A DNA stretch of 64,000 bases, taken from positions 448,001 through 512,000 of the forward strand of contig OZ223300.1 in assembly GCA_965140705.1 (NCBI GenBank), in the 5' to 3' direction. Every line of letters starts with the position of its first letter. Positions within the stretch are counted from its first letter, which is position 1. The notes beneath the pieces were generated by a model, which was given only the letters and a program-made list of their open reading frames with translations, did no database searches and was not told the DNA's origin. The position numbers and the translations under genes were made by a program. Below, in pieces: positions 4,818-20,219 of the stretch. Origin of the DNA: an uncultured Arcobacter sp. (GTDB lineage: Bacteria; Campylobacterota; Campylobacteria; Campylobacterales; Arcobacteraceae).

Positions 4818-5498
4818 ATGCTTTTACACATACCAAATGTATTAACAAAGGAACAAGTTTTTGAGTGCAGAAAACTCTTAGATGAAGCTACTTGGGTAGA
4901 TGGAAAATTAACAGCTGGAAGTCAAGCTGTTAATGTAAAAAGTAATCTACAACTTGCTGAAAATGATCCTTTGTTAAAACATTTAAGAGATATGATTACT
5001 TCAAGTTTAAAATCAAATCCACTTTTTGTATCAGCTGCTTTACCAAATCACATTATTTCACCTTTTATAAATAGATATGAAAACAGTGGTGAATATGGAA
5101 ACCATGTAGATAATTCAATTTTATATGATACTACTGTTGGTAAAAGTTTCCGTACTGATATCTCTAGTTCACTATTTTTTACAGATCCTGATGAGTATGA
5201 AGGTGGAGAGATGATTATAGAAGATACCTTTGGAACCCACGAAGTAAAACTTCCAGCTGGAGATTTATTACTTTATCCCTCAACAAGTTTACATAGGGTT
5301 GAGCCAGTCACTAAAGGTGTTCGAATGGTAAGTTTTATGTGGACTCAAAGTATGATTAGAAGTGCTTGGAAAAGAAGTATTTTATTTGAACTTGATAATA
5401 CAATTCAAAGTTTAAGGTCAAAATATGGAGAGACTAAAGAAGCTGTAGATTTATCAATTCATTATCATAAACTAATTCAAGAATGGGCGGAACTTTGA
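4818..5498 (+). CDS. piuC: PKHD-type Fe(II)/2-oxoglutarate hydroxylase, PiuC/YbiX family
   Basis: WVDGKLTAG.QA..VK.NLQL, YGNHVDN, YEGGEM.IEDTFG, YPSTSLHRVEPVT.G.R, WTQSMIR. Confidence 0.9.
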   Translation: MLLHIPNVLTKEQVFECRKLLDEATWVDGKLTAGSQAVNVKSNLQLAENDPLLKHLRDMITSSLKSNPLFVSAALPNHIISPFINRYENSGEYGNHVDNSILYDTTVGKSFRTDISSSLFFTDPDEYEGGEMIIEDTFGTHEVKLPAGDLLLYPSTSLHRVEPVTKGVRMVSFMWTQSMIRSAWKRSILFELDNTIQSLRSKYGETKEAVDLSIHYHKLIQEWAEL

Positions 5499-5499
5499 A

Positions 5500-6597
5500 T
5501 TGAATACAATAGAGCCAAAACTAGATTATATTCCAAATGAGATTGTTTGTGTTGATGATTATGAAAGCTTTGCAAAATCTAGAGTAGATACAAATGCTTG
5601 GGCTTATATTTCATCTGCTTCAGCAGATGAAATAACTTATAAAGCTAATAAGCAAGCATTTGATAAAATATCTCTTTTAAGCAGAACATTAGAAGATTTA
5701 AAAGGTGGGAACACAAAGTTAAGTTTATTTGGGCAAGAGTATGCACATCCTATTTTTTTAGCTCCTGTTGCTTATCAAAAATTAGTTCATATTGATGGTG
5801 AAATTGCAAGTGCCCAAGCTGCTAATGCCATGGAAGCCTGTATGATGTTAAGTGGCTTTTCAAGTACTTCTTTAGAAGAGATAAGTACCTATTCCAACTC
5901 ACCTTTATGGTTTCAATTATATATGCAAATAGATATGAATGATAATTTATTTCTAATAAAAAAAGCTGAAAGCTTAGGTTATAAGGCACTAGTGATTACA
6001 ATAGATGCTCCAATTGCAGGAATTAGAAATAAAGAACAAAAAGCAGGCTTTGCCTTACCTTCTCATATAGAAGCTGTAAATTTACGAGGAATGAAGCAGT
6101 TAGATTTAGATTTGAAAGAAGTTCAAAGTACTATTTTTGATGGGATTATGGTACATTCCCCTACTTGGGAAGATATTAAGTTTATAAAAGAAAATACAAA
6201 GTTACCAGTTATTTTAAAAGGTATTACACATCCATCATATGCAAAAAAAGCAGTTGAGCTTGGGATTGATGGTATTATTGTTTCAAATCATGGGGGAAGA
6301 ATTTTAGATACTCTTGTTTCTACAATTGATATTTTACCAAAGATTGTAGAGGTAGTTGATGGGGAAATCCCAGTTTTATTAGATGGAGGAATTAGAAGGG
6401 GAACTGATATAATAAAAGCTCTTGCTTTTGGAGCAAGTGCTGTTTTAATCGGCAGACCAATTATGTTCGCTCTTGCTACATCAGGAGCTTTAGGTGTAGC
6501 ACATATTTTAAAAATACTAAAAGATGAGTTAGAAGTTTCTATGGCACTTACAGGGTGTAAAACCCTTAAAGATATTACAAAAGAGATTTTATATTAG
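5500..6597 (+). CDS. FMN-dependent alpha-hydroxy-acid oxidase/dehydrogenase
   Basis: WFQLY, LVITIDAP..GIR, ILKGI, VSNHGGR, DGGIRRGTD, GRP. Confidence 0.9.
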   Translation: MNTIEPKLDYIPNEIVCVDDYESFAKSRVDTNAWAYISSASADEITYKANKQAFDKISLLSRTLEDLKGGNTKLSLFGQEYAHPIFLAPVAYQKLVHIDGEIASAQAANAMEACMMLSGFSSTSLEEISTYSNSPLWFQLYMQIDMNDNLFLIKKAESLGYKALVITIDAPIAGIRNKEQKAGFALPSHIEAVNLRGMKQLDLDLKEVQSTIFDGIMVHSPTWEDIKFIKENTKLPVILKGITHPSYAKKAVELGIDGIIVSNHGGRILDTLVSTIDILPKIVEVVDGEIPVLLDGGIRRGTDIIKALAFGASAVLIGRPIMFALATSGALGVAHILKILKDELEVSMALTGCKTLKDITKEILY

Positions 6598-6610
6598 AAA
6601 AAGGACTTAA

Positions 6611-7741
6611 ATGCATAAAAAATTTTTGTTTAAAGTACATATGATTTTAGGCTTGACAGCTGGAGTTATTTTATTAATTATGGGAATAACAGGAGCAATG
6701 CTATCTTATCAAAAAGAGATATTAAAATATATAAATAAAGATAGTTTTATAGTAGAAGTTCCAAGTACAAAAAGATTATCTGCAAAAGAGATATTAGAAA
6801 AATTTGAGCAAAAATTTCCAGATGCTAAAATAAATGCATTTATTTTTTCTAGTAGTGCAAATAGATCTGTAGTTATTAATGTAAAAGCTAATGGTGAAGG
6901 AAAACAAGCAAGAAGGGGAATAAATTATTATATTAATCCCTATACATCAGAAGTTTTACCAAGCACACAAGGCTATACATTTTTTAAACTTATTGAAAGA
7001 ATTCATAGGGGATTGATAATTGGAGAAGTTGGAAAACAAATAAGTGGAATCTGTACTTTTGCTCTATTAATACTTATGTTTAGTGGAATATATGTCTACT
7101 GGAAAAGAGTAAAAAATTCATTTTTCAAAAGTTTTACCTTTAGTTTTAAGGATAAAAAAAGAGCATTTTTATCAAATATACATTTTGCAATTGGAATGTG
7201 GGTAATACCATTTTATTTGTTATTATGTATTACAGGTGTTACTATGACATATGATTGGGTAAAAGATGGCTTATATAAAGTTTCAGGGGTTGAAAAACCT
7301 ATACGACAAAAAAGAATGCCAACACCAAAAAATAAAAAAGGTGAAGTTACAGCTTCTATATCAAATGGTGATGTAGAAAAAATAGTTCAACTATTTAATA
7401 AGAATGTCAAAGAGTATGAAAATGCTACTTTACAAATTGGCAAAAAAAGTGATGTAGTAAAAATAAGTTATTTTGCAAAAAATGCAATTCATGATAGGGC
7501 AAGAAGTGAGATAACATTAGATACAAAAACAAATAAAGTCATAAAAAATGATAAATTTGAAGATAAAGCTTTAAATGATAGATTAATGAGAAGTATTATT
7601 TCTCTTCATACAGGAGAATATTTTGGTCTTTTAGTTCAAGGAATATTAGGAATATCATCCCTAATGATGGTACTATTTACAATAACTGGTTTTATGATGT
7701 ATTTTAAAAGAAAAGAAAAAAAATCAGTCAAAAAAATATAA
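6611..7741 (+). CDS. PepSY-associated TM helix protein (PiuB-like)
   Basis: H.ILGL...GITG, YINPYT, IH.GL, SGIYVYW, NIHFAIG, SLHTGEYFG, ITGFMMY. Confidence 0.85.
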   Translation: MHKKFLFKVHMILGLTAGVILLIMGITGAMLSYQKEILKYINKDSFIVEVPSTKRLSAKEILEKFEQKFPDAKINAFIFSSSANRSVVINVKANGEGKQARRGINYYINPYTSEVLPSTQGYTFFKLIERIHRGLIIGEVGKQISGICTFALLILMFSGIYVYWKRVKNSFFKSFTFSFKDKKRAFLSNIHFAIGMWVIPFYLLLCITGVTMTYDWVKDGLYKVSGVEKPIRQKRMPTPKNKKGEVTASISNGDVEKIVQLFNKNVKEYENATLQIGKKSDVVKISYFAKNAIHDRARSEITLDTKTNKVIKNDKFEDKALNDRLMRSIISLHTGEYFGLLVQGILGISSLMMVLFTITGFMMYFKRKEKKSVKKI

Positions 7742-7744
7742 ATT

Positions 7745-7780
7745 TATAAAAAGAAGTTGTTGGAAAACACTTCTTTTATA
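7745..7780. terminator. Bidirectional terminator-like hairpin between convergent genes
   Basis: TATAAAAAGAAGT...ACTTCTTTTATA. Confidence 0.55.
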
Positions 7781-7781
7781 T

Positions 7782-8243
7782 TCATTTCCTATATGAAAAA
7801 TATTCTTCATTAACTTTTTGAAAGTTACTGTTTCCAGTAATTGTAATATCTTGAGAATTATTTGACGAAATAATATTAGCAGGAGTTAAAGAGTATCTTA
7901 AATAATATGTTTTATTTTTTTCAATATTTATTTTAACTTTACCATCTTCCAAACCTGGCATAAATAAAATTGAATCCTTTACCGTAAAAATATGTTCTCC
8001 TGGAATAACTTTAATTACTAGTTCTTGACCTGTGCCTAATTTTCCTATATATTTTTCATCAATATAAAAAAATGGTTTTTCTGGATTGAACATATGAAAT
8101 GATGAATTTGTTCTATAAATATATACTGTGGCTAATTCTGTATTTTTTATCGAACTTGGTATTTGATAAGTGTTATTTTTACTGCAACTTGATAATAAAA
8201 TTACACTAAAAAATAGTAAAAAGTTTAATAAGACTTTTTTCAT
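7782..8243 (-). CDS. Lipoprotein, DUF2846-like
   Basis: Lipobox LLSSC; ATVYIYR, IGKL, PGEH, KTYYLR pattern. Confidence 0.7.
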   Translation of the reverse strand: MKKVLLNFLLFFSVILLSSCSKNNTYQIPSSIKNTELATVYIYRTNSSFHMFNPEKPFFYIDEKYIGKLGTGQELVIKVIPGEHIFTVKDSILFMPGLEDGKVKINIEKNKTYYLRYSLTPANIISSNNSQDITITGNSNFQKVNEEYFSYRK

Positions 8244-8358
8244 GGTTTTCCTTTTTATAAATTGTAATTATTTTACAATAGGTATATTTTAATTTTAATG
8301 ATAAATAGTATAAATTTTATAATTTAGAATAAAATAATTGGTATTTTCATATTAACAT

Positions 8359-8399
8359 ACAAAAAACACCTACTAATTAGCTATTTTTCTTAGTAATAT
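8359..8399 (+). promoter_or_regulatory. Stress-cluster promoter motif copy 1 (photolyase operon)
   Basis: ACAAAAAACACCTACTAAT (8359-8377), 16 nt, then TAATAT (8394-8399). Confidence 0.6.
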
Positions 8400-8423
8400 A
8401 AATAAAAAACTAGGGAAATAGCT

Positions 8424-9755
8424 TTGAGACAAATACTTTGGTTCAGACGTGATTTAAGAATTATTGATAATAAAATTTTAGAAAAAGCATCCAATGAAGT
8501 ACTGCCTATATTTATTTTCGATAAAAATATTTTAGAAAAACTAGATTTTGATGATAAAAGGGTTACTTTTATTTATGATGCAGTATTAGCTTTAAAAAAA
8601 TCACTCCAAGAGCTTGGATTAGATTTATATATCTTTTTTGATATTCCTAAAAATGTATTTACTAAATTAAAAAATGAAGGTTTTGATGAAGTCTTATGTT
8701 CATGTGATTTTGACTCTTATTCAATAAAAAGAGATAAACAGATAAATGAAATATTGCCTTTAAAAAGATATTTAGACTCATTTTTAATCAATCCAAATAA
8801 AAACCTGAAAAAAGATGGAACACCTTATAAAGTATTTACTCCTTTTTACAAATCTCTATCTTGGTTAAGTTCATCAGATAAAATAGGTGAAGCTATGATA
8901 AATCCAAATTTAAAGTTATGTAAATATGAAAATAAAATTTCTACCTTAGAAGAGTTGGGATTTAAAAGAGCTGATTTACCAGAGTTTTTAAAAAAATCAC
9001 CACAAAACAGGTTAGATGATTTTAAAGAAAAAGTTAAAGAATATGAGAAAAATAGAGATATCTTTTACAAAGATGGAACTTCAAATTTAGGAGTTGATTT
9101 AAGATTTGGAACCCTATCTCCTAGAATGATTTTTAATGAAATAAAAAAATCAGATAAAGAAAATAGTGAAGCTTTTATTAGACAACTTTTTTGGAGAGAG
9201 TTTTATAATTATATTTTATTTCATTTTCCAAATAGTGAAAATAAAAACTGGAATGGTATTGAAATCTCTTGGAGTGAAGATGAAGAAAGTTTTCAAAAAT
9301 GGTGTGAAGGGGAAACAGGAGTACCTATAATAGATGCAGCCATGAGACATTTTAATAAAACAGGTATGATACACAATCGACTTAGAATGATTGTCTCTTC
9401 TTTTTTATGTAAAAATTTATTAATTGATTGGAAAAAAGGGGAGCAATATTTTGCAAAAAAACTGCTTGATTATGAGGCAAGCTCAAATATTGGCTCATGG
9501 CAATGGGCTGCAAGTACAGGGGCTGATAGTGTACCATATTTTAGAATCTTTAATCCATACTTACAATCAGCAAAATTTGATAAAGAAGCTATATTTATAA
9601 AAAGTGTAATACCTGAACTAAAAAATGTGGATGCCAAATTAATACATCTTGAGGGAGCTTTAAAAGATAAATATATAAGTCCAATAATAGATATTAAATA
9701 CTCAAGAGATAGGGCAATGAGAATTTTTAAAGAGGCAAAAAATGCAAAAGTATGA
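8424..9755 (+). CDS. phrB: Deoxyribodipyrimidine photolyase / cryptochrome family
   Basis: WFRRDLR, YKVFTPF, FIRQLFWREFY, TGVPIIDAAMR, HNRLRMIV, NIGSWQW, PYFRIFNP. Confidence 0.92.
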   Translation: MRQILWFRRDLRIIDNKILEKASNEVLPIFIFDKNILEKLDFDDKRVTFIYDAVLALKKSLQELGLDLYIFFDIPKNVFTKLKNEGFDEVLCSCDFDSYSIKRDKQINEILPLKRYLDSFLINPNKNLKKDGTPYKVFTPFYKSLSWLSSSDKIGEAMINPNLKLCKYENKISTLEELGFKRADLPEFLKKSPQNRLDDFKEKVKEYEKNRDIFYKDGTSNLGVDLRFGTLSPRMIFNEIKKSDKENSEAFIRQLFWREFYNYILFHFPNSENKNWNGIEISWSEDEESFQKWCEGETGVPIIDAAMRHFNKTGMIHNRLRMIVSSFLCKNLLIDWKKGEQYFAKKLLDYEASSNIGSWQWAASTGADSVPYFRIFNPYLQSAKFDKEAIFIKSVIPELKNVDAKLIHLEGALKDKYISPIIDIKYSRDRAMRIFKEAKNAKV

Positions 9756-11160
9756 TTTAGCAATAATTGGTTCAGGAATTGGGGGGGCATTAATAGCAGC
9801 ACTAAATAAAGATAAAAGTCATATTCTTTTTGAAAAAGATTCTAATCTTGGGGGATGTGCTAGTACTTTTAAAAGATTTGGGAATTATTATAATACAGGA
9901 GCTACAACTTTTGTAGGATATGAAGAAAATCATATTTTAAAAAATATGTTTGATAAAATCAAATATGTCCCAAATATCTCTGAATCAAAAATCGCAATAA
10001 GAACAATACAAAATAAAAAAGTAGTAGATAGAGTAAGAGACTTTGAAGAGTTTTTAGCCCAAATAGAAGAAAATTATCCAAATGAAAATAATAGAGTTTT
10101 TTGGGAAAAAATAAAAGATATTGATGAGAAGTTTTGGCAAATCAAGGATATATATTTTGCAAAATATAGTTTGCATTCTTATATAAAATCTTTGAGTACT
10201 TTTAAAAATATGATAAAAGTTTTTAAGCTGGATTTATTTAAAAGTGCAAGCTCTTTTATTAAAGAAAACTTGGGAGAAATAACACAAGAATATCAAAGTT
10301 TTATAGATGCCCAACTTCTTATTACTGTGCAAAGCAAATCAAAAGATATCTCTTTATTATCTATGGCTTTAGGCTTATCTTACCCTTTTCATAAAGTGTT
10401 TTATGTAAATAATGGCATGGGTTCAATTATAGAAGATATACTAAAAGAAGTAAATGTTCATAAAAAAGAAGAGATACTAAAAATCAAAAAATCAAAAGAT
10501 TCGTATTTTATTAATTCATCAAAAGGTGAATATCAAGCAAAAAATATTGTACTAAATACAACTATTTATGATAGTAAAAATTTTTTTGGAGAAAAAATAA
10601 AAAAATATTATGAAAAGTTTGAGTTTAGTGATCAAAGTGCTTTTACAAGCTATCTTACAATTAATAGTAAAGAGAAGTTTTTAGAACACTATCAAATCAT
10701 ATTAAAGCCTGATATTCCAAATTGCATCTCCAATTCATTTTTTATCTCTTTTTCAAAACTAAGTGATGAGAAAATGAGTCAAAATGGATATAGTGTAACT
10801 ATTTCAACTCATACAAAAGTTAGTACTTGGAAAGCCTTATCAAAGGATGATTATAAAAAACAAAAAGAGCTGACACAAAACTTTATATTAGAGCATTTTT
10901 TAGATTATTTTGATAACATAAGTTCAGAACAAATAACAAAAATATTTTCTGCTACTTGTTTGACTTTTCAAAGATTTATAGGAAGAGCAAATTGTGGTGG
11001 GAAAGCTATAAATATAAAGTCAGCTTTGCAAATCCCTTCTTGTAAAACACCTTTTGAAGGTTTATATAATGTGGGGGATACAGTATTTGCTGGTCAAGGT
11101 TGGCCAGGAGTTGCTTTGGGCGTAAATATATTAAATAAGGAGCTAAATGAAAAGCTTTGA
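9742..11160 (+). CDS. FAD-dependent oxidoreductase, phytoene desaturase (CrtI/CrtD)-like
   Basis: GSGIGG Rossmann motif, E..SNLGGCASTFKR.G..YNTGAT, C-terminal GLYNVGDTVFAGQGWPGV. Confidence 0.8.
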   Translation: MQKYDLAIIGSGIGGALIAALNKDKSHILFEKDSNLGGCASTFKRFGNYYNTGATTFVGYEENHILKNMFDKIKYVPNISESKIAIRTIQNKKVVDRVRDFEEFLAQIEENYPNENNRVFWEKIKDIDEKFWQIKDIYFAKYSLHSYIKSLSTFKNMIKVFKLDLFKSASSFIKENLGEITQEYQSFIDAQLLITVQSKSKDISLLSMALGLSYPFHKVFYVNNGMGSIIEDILKEVNVHKKEEILKIKKSKDSYFINSSKGEYQAKNIVLNTTIYDSKNFFGEKIKKYYEKFEFSDQSAFTSYLTINSKEKFLEHYQIILKPDIPNCISNSFFISFSKLSDEKMSQNGYSVTISTHTKVSTWKALSKDDYKKQKELTQNFILEHFLDYFDNISSEQITKIFSATCLTFQRFIGRANCGGKAINIKSALQIPSCKTPFEGLYNVGDTVFAGQGWPGVALGVNILNKELNEKL

Positions 11161-12136
11161 ATTACAAATTTCTTATAAAGACTGGCTTTATATAATCATT
11201 ATAGGAATACTTTTTGGTTTTTTGATTTCTTTAGTTTTTTATTATACAAATGAAGAGATTAGATATCTATCAACTATTGCTTTTAGTACTTCATGCGCTT
11301 TTTTTATCTCTTTCTTTTCTTTTTTATTTATTTCCATTTCAAATTTTTATATTTTGCCAAATGTTAAAAAAAGATATTGGTATTTTATTAGTTTTATATT
11401 CTCTTTTTTAGCTGGGTGGTGTGGGTTTTCTTTGACTTATATTTTATTTAGTGATAGCTATCCAATAGTAAAATTAATATCACAATATTGGCTAGATATT
11501 AGTACAACTATTGGATTATTAACTTTTTTGATTGGTTTGATATTGCATCAATTTATTTCTATGAAATATAAGAATGAAATAACTCATAGTGAGATATTAC
11601 AAACAAAATTACAAGCTTTGGAGGGTGAGTTAAATCCCCACTTTTTATTTAATGCTTTGAATTCTATTTCAGAACTTATATATCAAGATCAAAAAAAAGC
11701 AGAAGAGTCAGTTCTAAAATTATCAAAATTTTTAAGAAATGCCATTACAAAAAAGGGTTTGATTGATTTAAAAAGTGAAATTGATATGTTAAATACATAT
11801 TTACATATAGAGAATATAAGATTTGATAAAAAAATAGTTTTTAATCTAAATTGTGATGAAAAATATTATGATATGCTTTTACCAAAATTCTCCATCCAAC
11901 TTCTTGTAGAAAATGCAATAAAACATGGTTTTACAGGAGAGAGTTTGATTATTGATGTGAATGTAACTGATAAAAAAATAGAAGTAATAAATAGCGGGAA
12001 AGTTACTTCTAAAGTTACCTTTGGAGTGGGATTAAATAATTTGCAAAAAAGATTACAAATACTTAAAATTGGATATTTAAAAAGTTCAATAGAAGATAAT
12101 AAAATGAAATTTACAATATATAGGAGTAATAGATGA
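11147..12136 (+). CDS. LytS/YehU-family membrane sensor histidine kinase
   Basis: About four N-terminal TM segments; LNPHFLFNALNSI H-box; E...RF; QLLVENAIKHG; GVGLNNLQKRL. Confidence 0.88.
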   Translation: MKSFELQISYKDWLYIIIIGILFGFLISLVFYYTNEEIRYLSTIAFSTSCAFFISFFSFLFISISNFYILPNVKKRYWYFISFIFSFLAGWCGFSLTYILFSDSYPIVKLISQYWLDISTTIGLLTFLIGLILHQFISMKYKNEITHSEILQTKLQALEGELNPHFLFNALNSISELIYQDQKKAEESVLKLSKFLRNAITKKGLIDLKSEIDMLNTYLHIENIRFDKKIVFNLNCDEKYYDMLLPKFSIQLLVENAIKHGFTGESLIIDVNVTDKKIEVINSGKVTSKVTFGVGLNNLQKRLQILKIGYLKSSIEDNKMKFTIYRSNR

Positions 12137-12843
12137 AAGTAATGATAGTAGATGATGAAAAGCTAGCTCTTAGTAGATTGACAAGACTTCTAAATGAAGA
12201 AGGAATAGAAGATATTGTAAGTTTTGATTCTCCAAGTCTTGCTTTAGTAGAAGCAACAAAAAATAAGTTTGATGTAGTTTTTTTGGATATTTCAATGCCA
12301 CAAATGAATGGTTTGGAACTAGCTAATGTTATTTTATCTATGGAGCCTAAGACTTTTATTGTATTTCAAACAGCATATAGTGAGTATGCAATAGAGGCTT
12401 TTAAAATTGGTGGAATAGATTATTTAATGAAACCAATAGAGAGTGATGACATAAAAAGAGTAATAGAAAAAATAAAAAGTTTTAAACAATCAAGTGACGC
12501 AAGTGATGAAAAACTTTTAGGGAAAAGAGGAAATAAAATATATTTAATCAAACTTGATGATATATATTTTATAAAAGCAGATCTTGATGAAGTGCTTGTT
12601 CGTATAAAAGATGCAGATGTTTATGTAAAAAGAAAAATTGGAGATTTAGAAAAACTTTTAGATAAAAAGAAGTTTTTTAGAATACATCGCTCAATTATTG
12701 TAAATGTGGACAAAATAAAATCAATGGAGAGTGTAGAACAGTCAAAATTGACTATTAGCTTTGAAAATATTGATTCCGTAGTTACTAGTTCTAAAGATGG
12801 AGCTAAAGAGTTTAGAGAATATTTAGAAAGAAGAAGTCTTTAA
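12133..12843 (+). CDS. LytTR-family response regulator
   Basis: VDDE, FLDISMPQMNG, TAYSEYA, DYLMKP; LytTR domain FFRIHRSIIVN. Confidence 0.92.
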   Translation: MKVMIVDDEKLALSRLTRLLNEEGIEDIVSFDSPSLALVEATKNKFDVVFLDISMPQMNGLELANVILSMEPKTFIVFQTAYSEYAIEAFKIGGIDYLMKPIESDDIKRVIEKIKSFKQSSDASDEKLLGKRGNKIYLIKLDDIYFIKADLDEVLVRIKDADVYVKRKIGDLEKLLDKKKFFRIHRSIIVNVDKIKSMESVEQSKLTISFENIDSVVTSSKDGAKEFREYLERRSL

Positions 12844-12847
12844 ACTG

Positions 12848-12888
12848 ACAAAAAACAACTACTAATCCTTTTGTTTTGATGATAAACT
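12848..12888 (+). promoter_or_regulatory. Stress-cluster promoter motif copy 2 (gpx-SRPBCC-hemH)
   Basis: ACAAAAAACAACTACTAAT (12848-12866), 16 nt, then TAAACT (12883-12888) preceded by TG. Confidence 0.6.
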
Positions 12889-12909
12889 TTTCAAAATAGA
12901 AGGATTAGC

Positions 12910-13443
12910 ATGAAAAAATTATTATCAACACTACTTTTCTTTATTCCTATACTAGGAATCTCACAAACATCAATTTATGATTTTAAAGTTAAAACAATAG
13001 ACAATAAAGAGATATCTTTATCAAAATACAAAAATAGAGTTATGTTAATAGTCAATGTTGCTAGTAAGTGTGGCTTTACTTACCAATATGAAGGTTTAGA
13101 AAAATTGCACGAAAAATACTCTTCAAAGGGTTTAAGTATTTTAGGTTTTCCTTGTAATCAATTTTTAAATCAAGAACCAGGAACAAATAAAGATATAAAA
13201 GAGTTTTGTTCTTTAACTTATCAAGTAAAATTTGACATGTTTTCAAAAATAGATGTAAATGGTGATGATGCTTCACCTTTATATAAATATTTAAAATCAT
13301 CTCAATCAGGACTATTTGGTACAGGCCTTATAAAATGGAACTTCACAAAGTTTTTAGTTGATAGAACTGGAAAAGTAATAAAAAGATACTCACCTTCAAC
13401 AAATCCAAGTGAAATTGAAGATGATATAAAAGAGTTATTATGA
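12910..13443 (+). CDS. Glutathione peroxidase-family (Cys-GPx) protein with N-terminal signal-like peptide
   Basis: NVASKCGFT.QY, GFPCNQF..QEPG, KWNFTKFLVDR; hydrophobic N-terminus MKKLLSTLLFFIPILG. Confidence 0.92.
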   Translation: MKKLLSTLLFFIPILGISQTSIYDFKVKTIDNKEISLSKYKNRVMLIVNVASKCGFTYQYEGLEKLHEKYSSKGLSILGFPCNQFLNQEPGTNKDIKEFCSLTYQVKFDMFSKIDVNGDDASPLYKYLKSSQSGLFGTGLIKWNFTKFLVDRTGKVIKRYSPSTNPSEIEDDIKELL

Positions 13444-13895
13444 AAAGATATGAAAAAACATCACTCATCTCGTGCTCATTAGATGAATTATTTGAGTTTC
13501 ATTTAGACTCAAATAATATAAAAAGAATCACTCCAAAAGATACAAAAGTAGAACTTCTAAGTAAAAATTTTGTGCCAGCTGAAGGCAAAGTTTTACAAAT
13601 AAAAACTACAAAATTTTGTATACCAACTTTATGGGAAGTTGAGATTAGTTTGATAAAAAAACCAAATATGTTAGTTGATACAGCAATTCGCTCACCCTTT
13701 GAGTTTTGGAGACATTCTCATATCTTTACAAAAAAAGGAAATGTTTGTGAATTAAAAGATGTGATTGAATATGAAATGCCATTTGGCTTTATTGGAAATA
13801 TTTTTTCTGGTTTTATGGAAAAACAACTTGATAATATGTTTTCATATAGACATAAACAAACAAAGATGATATTAGAAAAGAAGGATGAAGATTGA
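13440..13895 (+). CDS. SRPBCC (START-like) family protein
   Basis: ELFEFH...NI..ITP, D.AIRSPF.FW.H.H.F, D.IEY.MPFG, MFSYRH. Confidence 0.8.
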   Translation: MKRYEKTSLISCSLDELFEFHLDSNNIKRITPKDTKVELLSKNFVPAEGKVLQIKTTKFCIPTLWEVEISLIKKPNMLVDTAIRSPFEFWRHSHIFTKKGNVCELKDVIEYEMPFGFIGNIFSGFMEKQLDNMFSYRHKQTKMILEKKDED

Positions 13896-14824
13896 AAAAA
13901 GCAGTAGTGCTCATGAATATGGGTGGCCCAAATAATTTAGATGAAGTAAAAGTTTTTTTGACAAATATGTTTAATGATAAATATATAATAGGTGCACCAC
14001 AGCCTATAAGAGCTATGATAGGATTTTTGATTACAAGTATGAGAGAAAAAGAGGCTAAAAAAAACTACGCTTTACTTGGAGGAATGTCTCCAATAGTAGG
14101 TCATACAAAAAGACTTGTTAGAAGATTAAATGAAAGAATAGAAGATAAGGATGTCTTTTATGCTATGAGATATACTCCACCTTTTTCAGAAGAGGTAGTA
14201 AAAGAGCTAAAAGAGTATGATGAGATTATTACTTTTCCTATGTATCCACATTATTCTAGTACAACTACAAAGTCTTCAATTGAAGACTTTCAAAAGGCTT
14301 TAAAAAAGGCAAATATAAATATTCCTGTTAAGACGGTAGAGAGTTATTATGACAATGAAAAATATAATAAGGTAATAGTTGAGAGAATAAAAGAGAGATT
14401 AGATGGAGATAACTCAGAAGAGTTTGAATTAGTCTTTTCAGCCCATGGACTTACCCAAAGGGTTATTGACAAAGGTGATTTATATCAAAAACATATTTTA
14501 GCAAATGTTGAATATGCAAAAAAAGAGTTAGAAAAACAAGGAATAAAGTTCAAAGATATACATGTAGCTTATCAATCAAGACTTGGTCCTATGGAGTGGC
14601 TTAGACCTTATATGGATGATAAGTTAAGAGAACTTGGAGATAAAGTTTTAGTCTATCCTATATCATTTACAGTAGATAATTCAGAAACAGAATTTGAACT
14701 TGTAATGGAGTATAAAGAGATAGCTGATGAGGTAGGAATAAAAGATTATAGAGTTGCACGTGCTCCAAATCATCATCCACTTTTTATGGAAGCGTTAAGT
14801 GAGCTTTTTGAGCAGGCAGTATAA
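13892..14824 (+). CDS. hemH: Ferrochelatase
   Basis: MNMGGP, GGMSP, AMRY, PMYPHYS..T, FSAHGL, YQSRLGPMEWL.P, SFTVDNSET.FEL. Confidence 0.95.
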   Translation: MKKAVVLMNMGGPNNLDEVKVFLTNMFNDKYIIGAPQPIRAMIGFLITSMREKEAKKNYALLGGMSPIVGHTKRLVRRLNERIEDKDVFYAMRYTPPFSEEVVKELKEYDEIITFPMYPHYSSTTTKSSIEDFQKALKKANINIPVKTVESYYDNEKYNKVIVERIKERLDGDNSEEFELVFSAHGLTQRVIDKGDLYQKHILANVEYAKKELEKQGIKFKDIHVAYQSRLGPMEWLRPYMDDKLRELGDKVLVYPISFTVDNSETEFELVMEYKEIADEVGIKDYRVARAPNHHPLFMEALSELFEQAV

Positions 14825-14825
14825 A

Positions 14826-16361
14826 TTACTTGTAAAAAAGTTTTATAATACCTGCTAAAAATAATACTAAAGCAAAGCTTTTTAAATCTTTGTCATACAA
14901 AAGAATAAAAAAGCTAGATAGAATTAGAATTAAAGAGTTTGTGATTCCTTTTACATAGCTTTTTAACTCTTTTGCTAAATACTCAATTTGATTATTTGAA
15001 ACTTCAATTTGTAAAGTTCCCTCACTAGCTTTTTTTACTACATTCTTTAACTCTTTTACAAAAAATGGTAAATCTTTTACTTCATCAATAATTGTCTCCG
15101 TTATTGTATCTTTTGCCCCAAGGGCTTTTGGAAGATTATTTTGCAAGATTGGTAGGATATCTTTTATTCCATTGAAATTTTCTATATAAGTAGTTCCTAA
15201 TCCTTCTACAATAGCACTAACTCTTAAGATATAAATAGCATCACTTGGTAGTTTAAAAGGCATATTTCTAGTTGTTTCTAAAATCTCAAAGGCAAGTTTT
15301 TGCATAGATTCACTACTTAAATTATCATTTGAAAATATATCAAACATATTTGAAGTAAACTCTGCAAGTTCTGAAGTAGGGGCTTCATATGATATGGTTC
15401 CAAGCCTTTTACTAGCAGCAATATAGAGTTCATAATTTTGTTCATTGGCTGCTTTTATTAACTCAATTATTGCTATTCTTTTATCATTTGGTACAGTTTT
15501 TACCATCCCAAAATCAAGTAAAATAAGTTCACCTTTTTTATTTACTAGTAAATTCCCAGGATGGGGATCTGCATGGAAGTATCCATTTATAAGCATTTGA
15601 GTAGTATAAAAATCAACTAATTTTGCAATGATATTTTTAAAATCTATTTTGTGTTTAAAGATATTTTCTTTATCATCAAATCTAAATCCCTCTTCATAAC
15701 TCATAACAATAGCATCATCGCTACAATACTCTTCATATGGCTTAGGAAACTTTATACCACTATTTTCATATACATGAGAAAATTTTTTTAGATTTGATAA
15801 CTCTTTATTTAAAGATACTTCTTCTTGTATCATCTTTGAAAACTCAACAATAACAGCTTCTATAGAGTTTTTAGTATAGTGTGAAAATAGGGGTTTAAAT
15901 AAAAAATTAAAAAAGCTTATGATTTTTATATCAGCTAAAATTTGTTTTTTTATGCCATCTCTTCTTAATTTTACAGCAACTTTTTCTCCACTATTTAAAT
16001 ATGCCACATGAACTTGTCCGATAGAAGCAGAAGCTATGGCATTTTTATCAAAGCTTTTGAAAGTAAGATTTTTAAAGGCCTTATTATAAATTTTTTCATA
16101 ACTTTTTTCATTCATTGGTGGGATTTGGTCATGGAGGTTTTTTAACTCATCAAGATAATCTTTTGAAAAAAAATCAGACCTAGTAGCCAATACTTGAGCT
16201 AGTTTTATAAAACTAGCCCCAAGTTTAACAATAGTATTTTTTAAACTTTTTGGTTTTAGTGGTTTTAAAAATAAAAAGCTCTCTTTTCTTTTTATAACTA
16301 AATAAATTGTTAATAAAAAGAAAAATACACTTAGTATTCTTTTGGGTGAATAATTATTTAT
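14826..16361 (-). CDS. ABC1/UbiB/AarF-family atypical kinase; extended to a probable ATA start
   Basis: IASASIGQVH, VAVK, FHADPHPGN, LDFGM. The conserved LGASFIKLAQVLATR motif lies upstream of the track's TTG (16190); the frame is open to ATA 16361, 6 nt after GAGGA. Confidence 0.85.
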   Translation of the reverse strand: MNNYSPKRILSVFFFLLTIYLVIKRKESFLFLKPLKPKSLKNTIVKLGASFIKLAQVLATRSDFFSKDYLDELKNLHDQIPPMNEKSYEKIYNKAFKNLTFKSFDKNAIASASIGQVHVAYLNSGEKVAVKLRRDGIKKQILADIKIISFFNFLFKPLFSHYTKNSIEAVIVEFSKMIQEEVSLNKELSNLKKFSHVYENSGIKFPKPYEEYCSDDAIVMSYEEGFRFDDKENIFKHKIDFKNIIAKLVDFYTTQMLINGYFHADPHPGNLLVNKKGELILLDFGMVKTVPNDKRIAIIELIKAANEQNYELYIAASKRLGTISYEAPTSELAEFTSNMFDIFSNDNLSSESMQKLAFEILETTRNMPFKLPSDAIYILRVSAIVEGLGTTYIENFNGIKDILPILQNNLPKALGAKDTITETIIDEVKDLPFFVKELKNVVKKASEGTLQIEVSNNQIEYLAKELKSYVKGITNSLILILSSFFILLYDKDLKSFALVLFLAGIIKLFYK

Positions 16362-16621
16362 TTTAAATCCTCTTTTAATTTTTCTAAGTCCTCTTTTGTA
16401 GCAAGTCCTAGTTCATCAATTACTTCTTTTAAGATTCTTTTTATTTCATCTTTTGCTTTTTTTTCTTCGTCTTTACCTTTTTGTTCAAGGGATTCTAAAA
16501 AGCTTTTTGCATCATCTTTTTTTAACTTACCTTTTTTCTCTAAGGCTTTTATCTCTTCTTCAACTTTTTCTCTAATAACAGCTGCTGCACCAAAACCAGT
16601 ATTTAATAATTCTTTTAGCAT
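16358..16621 (-). CDS. Phasin-like (PhaF/PhaI-type) small coiled-coil protein
   Basis: G.GAA...EK.EE....LEKKGKL...A, LGLATKEDL..L; adjacent to the ABC1 kinase. Confidence 0.75.
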   Translation of the reverse strand: MLKELLNTGFGAAAVIREKVEEEIKALEKKGKLKKDDAKSFLESLEQKGKDEEKKAKDEIKRILKEVIDELGLATKEDLEKLKEDLK

Positions 16622-16661
16622 TTTAATATCCTTTTTTATTTTTATACTTCTGTAATTATAT

Positions 16662-16691
16662 AGTATAAAACAATAATATCTGTATTGGTAG
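16662..16691 (-). promoter_or_regulatory. Stress-cluster promoter motif copy 3 (phasin-ABC1 kinase)
   Basis: Minus strand CTACCAAT (16691-16684), 16 nt, then TATACT (16667-16662). Confidence 0.55.
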
Positions 16692-16701
16692 TAGAAAAAT
16701 G

Positions 16702-17472
16702 TTAATTAATAATTTTTCCTGCTACCTTATGGGCGATTGGACCTTTTCCTGCACCTAAACTTGGGGCATTTTTTATTGCATGAAAAATAAATTCTTTCGA
16801 GATACTAATTGATTCCTCAAGTGTTTTTCCAAGAGCTAGATTTGCAGCAATTGCACTTGAAAAACTGCAACCCGTTCCATGGGTATTTGAGGTATCTATA
16901 AAATCAGATTGAAAAATCTTTTTTTGCCCATTTTTGTAAAATAATATATCTATAGAAACTTTTTTATTATCTGTTTGTTCGGTGTGATTTTTTATTAAAA
17001 CTTCACAAGGTATATTAGATATCTCTTTTAAAGCATCATTTCCAAAAAGTTCTTTTGCTTCATATAAGTTTGGAGTAGTAACTTTTGAATATGGAAACAG
17101 AGTTTTTAGATTTTCAATTGCATCTTCATTTAAAAGTTTTGAACCAGCTTTTGATACAAAAACAGGATCAAATACTATAGGAATATTTAAATCTTTTATA
17201 GAGTCTCTAACTACATCAATAATATCATTTGAAAAAAGCATTCCAATTTTTATGCAAGCTACATCAAAATCATCTAAAATTGCATCAATTTGGTCTTTGA
17301 TAAAAGATGGACTTACTTCTTGAATATTCGTTACACCTTTTGTATTTTGAGCAGTTAAAACAGTAAGCACACTACAACCAAAAACACCAAATGCCTCAAA
17401 GGTTTTTAAATCAGCTTGAATACCTGCTCCTGCGCTACAATCACTTCCTGCTATGGATAAAACTACTTTCAA
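16702..17472 (-). CDS. thiD: Hydroxymethylpyrimidine/phosphomethylpyrimidine kinase
   Basis: IAGSDCSAGAGIQADLKTF, TAQNT.GV, KIGML, TPNL.EA, HGTGCSFSSAIA. Confidence 0.95.
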   Translation of the reverse strand: MKVVLSIAGSDCSAGAGIQADLKTFEAFGVFGCSVLTVLTAQNTKGVTNIQEVSPSFIKDQIDAILDDFDVACIKIGMLFSNDIIDVVRDSIKDLNIPIVFDPVFVSKAGSKLLNEDAIENLKTLFPYSKVTTPNLYEAKELFGNDALKEISNIPCEVLIKNHTEQTDNKKVSIDILFYKNGQKKIFQSDFIDTSNTHGTGCSFSSAIAANLALGKTLEESISISKEFIFHAIKNAPSLGAGKGPIAHKVAGKIIN

Positions 17473-17648
17473 TTTATTTCCTTTATATGTTTTCTAATTC
17501 TACTGAAATTATCATTATGGTAGGAAAAGAAACAAAATAATTAAAATAAATATTGTAGAAATAATAATTAAACTTATTTTAATAAAAGGAAAGGTTTTTA
17601 TGCTACAATTTAGACACAGTTTATGAAGTAAAAATAAAAGGGGATTGA

Positions 17649-20219
17649 ATGTTAAAATCATTGTCGATAAAAGCAAGGCTTTTACTTATAGTTATAAGTT
17701 CAATAGTCATTGTTTCTGCCGTTATGCTTGCACAGTCGGTAATTTCTTTACAGGAGACGTCGGCAACTGTAATAGAAAAGTTTAAACAAAATGCTTATGC
17801 TACAAAAGAAGAGGAACTAAAAAACTATGTTTCCTTGGTTATGAAAACAGTAGAGTCTTATTATGCAAGAACAGCCCCTGAAAAAATAAAAGTTGAAGTT
17901 CAAGCTAAATTAAAAGAACAAACTGAATTTATGTTATCAATCATGCAAGGAGAGTATGATAAGTATAAAGGAAAAGTATCTGATGAAGAACTGAAAAATA
18001 TGATTAAAACTTCGGTACAAAAAGCAAGATATGGAGATACAGGTTATTTTTGGATAAATGATTTAGATGCAAAAATCATTATGCATCCAATAAAACCAGC
18101 CCTAGATGGTAAGGATATGTCTGAATATAAAGATAAAGGTGGAAAAAGAATTTTTTATGAATTTGCAGAAGTTGCAAAAAAATCAGGTTCTGGATTTGTT
18201 GATTACGTTTGGCCAAAACCAGGTTTTGAAAAACCTCAAGAAAAGGTATCTTTTGTAAAACTTTTTGAACCATTTGGTTGGGTTATAGGTACTGGTGAAT
18301 ATGTTGATAATGTAACTGATAAATTGAAAAAAGAAGCACTAAAAGCAATATCACAAATGAAATACGGTAAATCTGGCTACTATTGGATTAACGATTCAAA
18401 TCATGTAGTAGTAATGCATGCAATGAAACCATCTTTAGTGGGTAAAAATATGTCTGATTTACAAGATCCAAAGGGTAAATACATATATCGAGAAATCGTT
18501 AAAACAGCTAATGCAAAAGAAGAGGGTGGATTGGTTAAATATATGTGGCCAAAACCTGGTAAGAAACTTGATCAACCTAAATTTTCATATGTACAAAGAT
18601 TTGCTCCTTGGGATTGGATTATAGGAACAGGGGCATATGTAGATGATATTGAAGATAAAATTGCACAAATGCATGATGAAACGGAAGCTCAAATAAAAGC
18701 GGTAATTATAAGAAATTGTGCAATTATTTTTGTTATTATGATTATCTTAGCAATAATTATGGGTATGCTATCTAATAGATCTATTTTTGTGCCTTTAAAT
18801 AAATTCCAAGATGGATTATTAGGATTCTTTAAATATCTAAATAAAGAACAACCTGATGTTGATAATCTTGATGATTCAGCAAATGATGAAATTGGAGCGA
18901 TGGCAAAAATTATAAATCAAAATCTAGGAAAAACAAAATCTTTAATTAAACAAGATGATGAATTAATTCAAGATGTTACAAGAGTTGTAGGGGAGATAGA
19001 AAAAGGGTATTTATTTAACAGAGTTGAAAAAAGAACAGAAAATGAGTCTTTACAAAAACTTCAAAATAAACTAAATGAAATGTTGGATAATCTTGAAACT
19101 AATATAGGTAAAGATACAAATATCATTTTAGATTGTTTAGCAAAATATGGAAAACTTGATTTTAGAGATAATATACAAAATGCTCAAGGAAAAGTTGAAG
19201 TAGCTATAAATGAATTGTCAGATATTATTAATAATATGCTAAAAGAGAATAAACAAAATGGTTTAACATTAGATGCAAGTTCTGATGTTTTACTTAAAAA
19301 TGTTGATACTTTAAATAAAAACTCTACATCAACAGCTGCTTCGTTAGAAGAAACAGCAGCAGCATTAGAAGAGATAACTTCTGCAATTGTTAGTAACACA
19401 AATAATATTGCAACAATGGCAACATATTCTGATGAATTAGTTGAATCAATAAATCTTGGTAAAACTTTAGCTGAGTCAACTGTAGTTGCAATGGATGAAA
19501 TTAATAGTCAAACAGAAGCTATTGCAGATGCAATTGTTTTAATTGATCAAATAGCCTTCCAAACAAATATTTTATCACTAAATGCAGCAGTTGAAGCGGC
19601 AACAGCAGGAGAAGCTGGAAAAGGATTTGCCGTAGTTGCACAAGAAGTAAGAAATCTAGCTTCAAGATCTGCTGATGCAGCAAAAGAGATAAAATCTTTA
19701 GTTGAAAATGCAACGCAAAAAACAAATGCAGGTAAAGAAGGAACTGATAAGATGATTAAAGGTTATGAAACTTTACATCTAAATATCAAAAAAACAACAG
19801 ATACAATACAATCAATTGCAGAATCATCAAAAGAACAAAGAGCAGGTATTGAGCAAATAAATGATGCTGTTAATAGATTGGATCAACAAACACAAGAGAA
19901 TGTTGCTATTTCTAATACTACTCACTCTATTGCTGTTGAAACTGATGAGTTAGCTAAACTTATTGTTACAGTTACAAATGAAAAAGAGTTTAGAGGTAAA
20001 CATGATTTGAAAGCAAAAGTTTCTAACTATGAAACAGCAACAGTTACTATACCTGTAAAGAAAGTAGAAGTGAAAAAACCAGAATCAAAAAAAGTAGAAA
20101 AATCTTCTGATACAAAAAAAGAAGTGAAAAGTGAAAATAGTTCTAAAATAGAGGCTAAACCTAAAGTTGAAATAATAAAAAGTCAAAGTAGTTCTGATGA
20201 TGAATGGGAAAGTTTCTAA
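17649..20219 (+). CDS. Methyl-accepting chemotaxis protein with two tandem Cache_2-type domains
   Basis: Two GY.WIND...MH...Y.WPKPG...W.IGTG.YVD repeats; [31 protein letters not shown]-terminal EWESF pentapeptide. Confidence 0.93.

Follow-up and report, generated by a model that had tools for sequence, protein, structure and literature searches.

INTRODUCTION

In non-phototrophic bacteria, the perception of light and singlet oxygen is known mainly for σE-ChrR systems and for MerR/LitR-type regulators. The σE-ChrR singlet-oxygen regulon of Rhodobacter includes the genes for UfaO (DUF1365), UfaD (an amine-oxidase-like desaturase), and UfaM (a cyclopropane-fatty-acid [CFA]-synthase-like methylase), which make furan fatty acids (PMC7380195). 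The ufa genes belong to a conserved core of about eight genes (PMC6852236), and UfaM and RSP1091 are required for full activation of the response (PMC3546557). In Shewanella, an operon that joins a ferrochelatase paralogue to a periplasmic glutathione peroxidase (HemH2-PgpD) depends on RpoE2-ChrR (PMC4336711), and the blue-light response of Vibrio cholerae involves ChrR and a MerR-like protein encoded beside a photolyase gene (PMC5241685). Here, we describe a 64,000-nucleotide window (contig OZ223300.1, positions 448,001 to 512,000; "the window" refers to this whole stretch) from an uncultured Arcobacter sp., in which a photolyase gene and other stress genes form three transcription units, one of them encoding a LytS-type histidine kinase and a LytTR response regulator. 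All three units are headed by one promoter motif, which is probably the operator of that regulator.

LytS/LytTR systems (the AgrA, YpdB, BtsR, and ComE/PlnC class) pair a receiver-LytTR regulator with a PF06580 kinase encoded beside it. LytTR sites consist of repeats of 9 to 11 nt separated by 11 to 13 nt (PMC4847170), and those of AgrA are centered near −60 (PMC4227749).

RESULTS

The window belongs to a 3.10-Mb genome (28% G+C, 99.96% complete) whose contigs include C1 and C2. The initial annotation had placed one motif, CTAC(T/C)AAT-N16-TAnnnT, in front of three units. Unit 1 encodes a photolyase, a CrtD-like flavin adenine dinucleotide (FAD) oxidoreductase, a PF06580 kinase, and a receiver-LytTR regulator; unit 2 encodes a glutathione peroxidase (gpx), a 151-amino-acid (aa) protein, and a ferrochelatase; and unit 3, on the minus strand, encodes an 87-aa phasin-like protein and an ABC1/UbiB-like kinase. 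Rereading the sequence bore out these observations. The 19-mers upstream of the photolyase gene phr (8359-8377) and of gpx (12848-12866) are identical at 18 of 19 positions, with one mismatch, and the third site, CTACCAAT, lies at 16691-16684 on the minus strand. Exactly 16 nt downstream of each site stands a −10 box: TAATAT (8394-8399, plus strand), TAAACT (12883-12888, plus strand), and TATACT (16662-16667, minus strand), respectively. The half-sites noted 21 bp upstream, ATATTAAC (8349-8356) and TTATTAAT (16712-16705), are likewise present. Within the window, the pattern occurs three times against 0.27 expected, a count reached in 1 of 100 shuffles; the whole genome holds 13 matches, 3 of which fall in the 8.4 kb that span the three units' sites. 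When one position of the 19-mer is left free, a genome-wide search finds nothing beyond the two sites already reported.

When 60 orthologous loci were searched loosely for ACA-N8-nTA[C/T]nAA together with a −10 box, 120 distinct instances emerged. Positions 21 bp upstream of the proximal core, on which the search had imposed nothing, proved to be conserved and read T-A-T-n-A-A-C-T. Conservation extends to the 90 instances lying away from the regulator gene (T at −6 in 75, A at −4 in 79, and A at −3 in 74), so coding constraint does not explain the distal core. The resulting operator consensus, TATnAAC-N2-ACA-N8-[C/A]TA[C/T]nAA, spans 28 bp and contains two TA[T/C]nAA cores as direct repeats 21 bp apart; thus, the half-site 21 bp upstream is real. 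The motif first reported is indeed common to all three units, but it is longer than had been stated, taking in the upstream repeat and an invariant ACA. In the window, operator 1 (8349-8378, plus strand; distal repeat TATTAAC, ACA, and proximal repeat CTACTAAT) lies in the promoter of unit 1 (phr-amox-HK-RR, where HK and RR denote histidine kinase and response regulator), operator 2 (12838-12867, plus strand; distal repeat TTTAAAC) in that of the gpx operon, and operator 3 (16683-16712, minus strand; TATTAAT, ACA, and the proximal repeat given above) in that of phasin-ABC1. All were read in the sequence and scored with the weight matrix described below. The distal repeat of operator 2 (12838-12845) overlies the last codons of the regulator gene and its TAA stop (12841-12843).

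To score the window's own genome, we trained a weight matrix exclusively on 55 syntenic sites from other genomes (effective number, 31). Contig C1 yielded 6 hits of at least 20 bits, compared with 1 in a third-order Markov copy. Among 6.2 million positions, the window's sites ranked 2 (gpx, 25.1 bits), 5 (phasin, 21.2 bits), and 8 (phr, 19.8 bits); the gpx half-site had been called weak, whereas gpx has the highest-scoring of the three sites when judged by the family-wide consensus. Of the ten best hits, eight fall between genes, and all eight have a same-strand gene start downstream, at a distance of 38 to 209 nt for seven and about 60 nt for phasin (placed by hand). Outside the window, a 28.2-bit site heads an operon for a short-chain dehydrogenase/reductase (SDR), a SnoaL protein, and a major facilitator superfamily (MFS) transporter; a 21.4-bit site heads a second lipocalin gene; and a 17.2-bit site heads an operon encoding lipocalin, amine-oxidase-like, DUF1365, CMAS, DUF3833, PNPOx, EAL, radical-SAM, and TIGR03915 repair proteins. 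The genome-wide scan and the gene content of its hits indicate that the motif is rare and its downstream genes functionally coherent, rather than common throughout the genome without functional enrichment. The predicted regulon is thereby larger than the three units, with at least three further putative promoters elsewhere in the genome. The long lipocalin-UfaD-UfaO-UfaM-like operon (C1:1575334-1579086; L061 5334-9086) also encodes a pyridoxamine-phosphate oxidase, an EAL protein, and a radical-SAM/TIGR03915 putative DNA repair pair; its content hints at vitamin B6, cyclic di-GMP, and light-independent DNA repair as possible outputs of the same response.

The position of the operator relative to the promoter is nearly fixed. 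Among 49 untrained sites of at least 17 bits, the best −10 hexamer lies 16 to 18 nt past the proximal core in 36 (17 nt in 29), compared with 27% of random positions. The −10 consensus, TAnAAT, is σ70-like, and the proximal core stands 17 nt upstream of it. Given this fixed spacing, the proximal repeat appears to stand in for the −35 hexamer, and with the proximal core in the −35 place, the operator is centered near −42. The three −10 boxes of the window are weak and have no TG extension. A consensus σ70 promoter/terminator scan produced 44 promoter-like hits (54 expected), and none of the three promoters was among them because they have no recognizable −35 hexamer.

The phylogenetic footprinting that had been suggested as a check was carried out on loci of relatives. 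Of 151 genomes sampled from the family, 100 gave a match to the regulator, and 60 of these loci were taken for gene mapping. In an untrained set of 20 DUF1365 loci from several genera, all 20 carried a correctly oriented site of at least 15 bits before the SDR operon, the lipocalin operon, or both (both in 13, by our own count), and sites recurred also before phasin-ABC1, the second lipocalin gene, thiD, and the radical-SAM pair. Across the phylum, 301 genomes were sampled and 19 had the kinase; the two largest families had it in 0 of 90 and 0 of 124, and 8 genomes in four other families carried it. Six of these eight loci were taken; of the two others, one stood at the end of a contig and one matched only in part. 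In all six, from other families of the Campylobacterales, the motif (16.6 to 29.0 bits) precedes the flavoprotein-kinase-regulator operon, although their kinases are only 40 to 54% identical. Orthologous operons are thus headed by the motif in 20 of 20 and 6 of 6 loci, and every lineage examined has it at the promoter of the regulator itself. A search with the kinase alignment returned mostly generic LytS-type kinase domains from many phyla; among the matches listed, full-length relatives made up 4 of 80 loci, all from Campylobacterales or Arcobacter.

Motif and regulon genes also travel with the regulator. A strict form of the pattern had a mean of 2.87 hits in the 85 genomes with a close regulator, compared with 0.72 for a reversed control; the corresponding values were 1.24 and 0.82 in the 51 genomes lacking a regulator and 1.60 and 1.40 in the 15 with a distant homologue. 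DUF1365 was present in 52 of 85 genomes with a close regulator, 5 of 15 with a distant one, and 1 of 51 without; for ABC1, the counts were 76 of 85, 11 of 15, and 5 of 51. The regulator-less genomes lack the DUF1365 cluster and so gave no control for its sites.

The genes of unit 1 lie close together or overlap. The deoxyribodipyrimidine photolyase (8424-9755, plus strand; Pfam FAD_binding_7, E = 1.9e-68, and DNA_photolyase, 1.4e-24; NCBIfam photolyase models below their cutoffs) is the sole photolyase-family gene of the genome in a genome-wide search. The CrtD/carotenoid-isomerase-like FAD oxidoreductase gene (9742-11160, plus strand; Pfam NAD_binding_8 and Amino_oxidase; NCBIfam CrtD and carotenoid isomerase below cutoff) shares the 14 nt at its end with the gene of the LytS-type histidine kinase (11147-12136, plus strand; Pfam His_kinase PF06580, 2.3e-23; alignment of 44 orthologues). 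Read off the sequence by eye, the kinase has four predicted membrane helices and no outside domain. The response regulator (12133-12843, plus strand), the only LytTR protein of the genome, combines receiver and LytTR DNA-binding domains (Pfam Response_reg, 5e-25, and LytTR, 1.2e-21, both over cutoff); its closest NCBIfam models, BtsR and LytR, fell below cutoff, and a sequence search against solved structures matched receiver domains only. Kinase and regulator genes share 4 nt, and the pair is kept in the 60 loci.

In unit 2, the glutathione peroxidase gene (12910-13443, plus strand; Pfam GSHPx, 3e-46) encodes an N-terminal signal-like segment, judged by eye from the N terminus. It is followed by the gene of the 151-aa protein (13440-13895, plus strand), which has a weak SRPBCC/polyketide-cyclase likeness (Pfam Polyketide_cyc, E = 0.0015, below cutoff) and is linked with the regulator gene in many loci, and then by a second, HemH2-like ferrochelatase gene (13892-14824, plus strand; Pfam Ferrochelatase, 2.8e-93). 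The genome has two ferrochelatase genes, this one and C1:837102-838016, the copy in the window being the regulon copy, paired with glutathione peroxidase. In 41 of the 60 loci, a site directly follows the regulator gene, whatever comes next: gpx, the 151-aa gene, thiD, or phasin.

Unit 3 begins with the phasin-like coiled protein (16358-16621, minus strand; NCBIfam phasin-related domain, E = 1.1e-4, below cutoff), whose gene is conserved upstream of ABC1 in the relatives' loci. The ABC1/UbiB-like atypical kinase gene (Pfam ABC1, 3.6e-59) was listed as an open reading frame (ORF) at 14826-16190; it lies in an open frame of 528 aa, and junction analysis places it most likely at 14826-16361 on the minus strand. 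It has a conserved N-terminal extension of about 45 to 60 residues with no canonical start codon here and in several relatives. Of 25 distinct junctions, 21 place ABC1 in frame −1 relative to phasin, and the codon overlapping the phasin stop is mostly ATA (ATAA or ATAG), with ATG (ATGA) in L069 and GTG (GTGA) in L090. The extension most likely starts at the ATA overlapping the phasin stop (16361-16359), and the junction (16358-16361, minus strand) points to termination-reinitiation with ATA as a non-canonical start codon; alternatively, a −1 frameshift at A-AAA-TAA could give a phasin-ABC1 fusion.

Three further hits of the matrix stand apart from this gene set. A 20.1-bit site (C1:175400-175429, minus strand; L063 6400-6429) lies 79 nt before a PAS chemoreceptor gene adjoining rpoN. 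This gene was considered as a core regulon member and rejected because only 2 of the 14 orthologous upstream regions retain a site (25.5 bits in G017 and 16.7 bits in G054); it would be at most a recent, lineage-specific addition. A 19.8-bit site (C2:128400-128429, plus strand; L064 2400-2429), which precedes a DUF6602 gene by 209 nt, shows no evident tie to the regulon and may be due to chance. Finally, a TerB-DnaJ (DjlA-like) gene contains a 24.8-bit site (C1:1791916-1791945, minus strand; L062 4916-4945) that has a TAGAAT −10 box; two BFD-like [2Fe-2S] genes, a 71-aa ORF, and an NAD synthase gene follow some 390 nt downstream. In genomes of the same genus, the strict 25-bp pattern is matched by almost identical letters; the site in the TerB-DnaJ gene could be an internal promoter or could reflect conservation driven by coding.

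DISCUSSION

The initial annotation had suggested that the three units, the regulator's own operon included, share an operator with LytTR-type geometry. The rarity of the motif, the coherence of the genes behind it, the footprinting, its co-occurrence with the regulator, and its spacing all agree with that suggestion. We therefore consider it probable that a single transcription factor uses all three sites as operators and that this factor is most likely the LytTR response regulator of 12133-12843 in its phosphorylated form. On a signal, the four-helix intramembrane LytS-type kinase would phosphorylate the regulator, which would bind the two repeats near −42 and activate weak σ70-type promoters, the bound dimer recruiting RNA polymerase in the manner of a class-II-type activator. 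The regulator would induce the operon that encodes it (photolyase, CrtD-like flavoprotein, kinase, and regulator), together with gpx-SRPBCC-hemH2 and phasin-ABC1; its targets at other genomic positions would be SDR-SnoaL-MFS, the second lipocalin, and the operon for lipocalin, UfaD, UfaO, UfaM-like, DUF3833, PNPOx, EAL, and radical-SAM repair proteins. Because the gene set is that of σE-ChrR, the inducing signal is likely to be photo-oxidative membrane damage, which the four-helix kinase would sense.

Several observations weigh against this interpretation. The ACA, the most invariant letters of the motif, lies in the spacer between the repeats and has no counterpart 21 bp away, so the site is not a simple pair of equal repeats. 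In the 60 loci, a site of at least 15 bits lies directly after the regulator gene in 41 and before the operon in 40, counts that are circular since these loci trained the matrix. Related genomes are moreover non-independent samples, and the excess of the pattern in regulator-bearing genomes comes partly from sites beside the regulator operon, which are co-inherited with it. The operator lies further downstream than AgrA sites, and, overlapping the −35 region, it fits a repressor as well as an activator. Lastly, no LytTR domain occurs in the complete genome G130, yet its phasin-ABC1 genes are still preceded by an 18.0-bit site (L092 ~5870-5899). This site is nearly identical to that of a regulator-bearing relative, G142 (L097 3468-3497, 18.5 bits); we take it for a recent relic left after loss of the two-component system, although it would also fit a second reader of the motif.

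Such a second reader could be the true one throughout. The motif would then be a real operator of the same regulon read by another factor, for example of Crp/Fnr or MerR type, with the LytTR regulator merely one of its targets; a good phasin-ABC1 site in G130 and an invariant ACA outside any repeat unit speak for this explanation. We nonetheless regard it as unlikely. No further regulator gene is conserved across the 60, 20, and 6 loci, the motif stays at the promoter of the kinase/regulator operon across families, both the motif excess and the regulon genes track the presence of the regulator, and the G130 site equals that of the regulator-bearing relative, as recent loss predicts.

A second explanation keeps the LytTR regulator as the binder and reverses its effect: it would repress from the −35 region, either leaving on a signal or de-repressing when unphosphorylated. 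The proximal repeat does sit exactly at the −35 place, where polymerase can be blocked. The promoters, however, have no recognizable −35 hexamer, and their −10 boxes are weak and lack the TG extension, a make-up usual for activator-dependent promoters. Moreover, face-of-helix contact with polymerase demands a fixed phasing such as the 17 nt seen here relative to the −10 box. Repression thus seems improbable, and from the make-up of the promoters and the gene content we infer activation instead.

The motif might also be the −35/−10 promoter of an extracytoplasmic function (ECF) σ factor encoded elsewhere, as in σE-ChrR systems, an alternative that the initial annotation had raised and for which the gene content, equal to the σE-ChrR core regulon as given in PMC6852236, would speak. 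Searches with σ-factor models found no gene for such a factor: in this 99.96%-complete genome, only RpoD passes Sigma70_r2 (PF04542) and the σ70-ECF model (TIGR02937), and Sigma70_r4_2 (PF08281) has no match over its cutoff, the single weak full-length match being a cyclic-nucleotide-monophosphate (cNMP)-binding Crp/Fnr-type protein. Together with the σ70-like TAnAAT form of the −10 boxes, this makes an ECF σ factor very improbable. Chance similarity in AT-rich intergenic DNA can practically be set aside, for even though the genome has only 28% G+C and the short core CTACYAAT occurs in it 304 times, a matrix trained on foreign genomes puts all three sites in its top 8 positions and the motif precedes every one of the 20 and 6 orthologous operons.

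Compared with σE-ChrR systems (ECF11; Rhodobacter sphaeroides, V. cholerae, and Shewanella RpoE2), the predicted regulon has the same content, namely photolyase, UfaM-like, UfaD, UfaO, SDR, and hemH2 with gpx. The CMAS, Amino_oxidase, DUF1365, adh_short, and photolyase families, which correspond to core targets set out in PMC7380195 and PMC6852236, are all present, and unit 2 has the same pairing as the hemH2-glutathione peroxidase operon described for Shewanella (PMC4336711). An autoregulated regulator operon, predicted here, is likewise common to both. They differ in that no ECF σ factor was found here (only RpoD passes the models; no search for ChrR was made) and in that the operator lies at σ70-type promoters and is coupled to a two-component system. 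The LytTR system appears to be a non-orthologous regulator replacement for σE-ChrR over a conserved photo-oxidative gene set.

With other LytS/LytTR systems, the locus shares the receiver-LytTR regulator beside a PF06580 kinase, a site at the regulator's own promoter, and two repeats about 21 bp apart. The 21-bp spacing of the cores agrees with the two-repeat architecture described in PMC4847170, to which the operator adds the invariant ACA in the spacer, and the YpdB motif given in the same source is unlike TA[T/C]nAA repeats with an invariant ACA. AgrA sites lie near −60 (PMC4227749), whereas the operator here overlaps the −35 region. The sensors LytS, YpdA, and BtsS carry an N-terminal 5TM-5TMR_LYT domain; the kinase here has only four hydrophobic segments, and its residues 1-150 gave no Pfam match, even at E values up to 1. 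To our knowledge, the other published LytTR motifs are also unlike the TA[T/C]nAA-plus-ACA form. Known outputs of the class are quorum sensing, pyruvate sensing, and murein hydrolase control, whereas photo-oxidative defense is the output predicted here. The arrangement also recalls the MerR-like LitR/CarH-type regulators, of which V. cholerae VCA0056 shares an operon with the photolyase under its control (PMC5241685). The regulator here is instead a phosphorylation-driven LytTR protein, and the 15 ORFs scanned at 4818-20219 gave no MerR-family Pfam match.

The CrtD-like flavoprotein may form part of the sensor. In 47 of 55 loci, its gene adjoins that of the kinase directly or overlaps it; in the other families, it lies directly upstream of the kinase in 5 of 6 and, in the sixth, in a divergent phr-amox operon. 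The gene overlap suggests an accessory role in sensing. Tentatively, and with rather more doubt than belief, we put forward that flavoprotein, kinase, and regulator make up a three-part membrane sensor of photo-oxidative damage, a lipid-mediated route for singlet oxygen and light independent of ChrR. The flavoprotein would make, consume, or photo-sense an oxidized or furan-type lipid, the four-helix kinase would read that lipid, and the regulator would raise the expression of the lipid-remodeling genes. A complex prediction for kinase and flavoprotein gave no support, a result that counts neither way. If true, such a sensor would mean that light/singlet-oxygen sensing evolved apart from ChrR in non-phototrophic Campylobacterota.

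The sequence comparisons thus point to a new regulon and a new operator for a known regulator class; in the open-access literature searched, we found no link of LytTR regulators to photolyase or to Arcobacter, including Arcobacter butzleri. Defense genes of the kind otherwise tied to σE-ChrR, for photolyase, furan fatty acids, a periplasmic glutathione peroxidase, a spare ferrochelatase, lipocalins, and ABC1/phasin, appear here to be wired to LytS/LytTR. This would be a clear case of one regulator class swapped for another over a conserved regulon and would widen the roles of LytTR regulators. The small intramembrane kinase may offer a tractable system for studying how membrane photo-damage is sensed, and the exact sites, spacing, and gene list provide testable predictions for a group that includes food- and water-borne Arcobacter.

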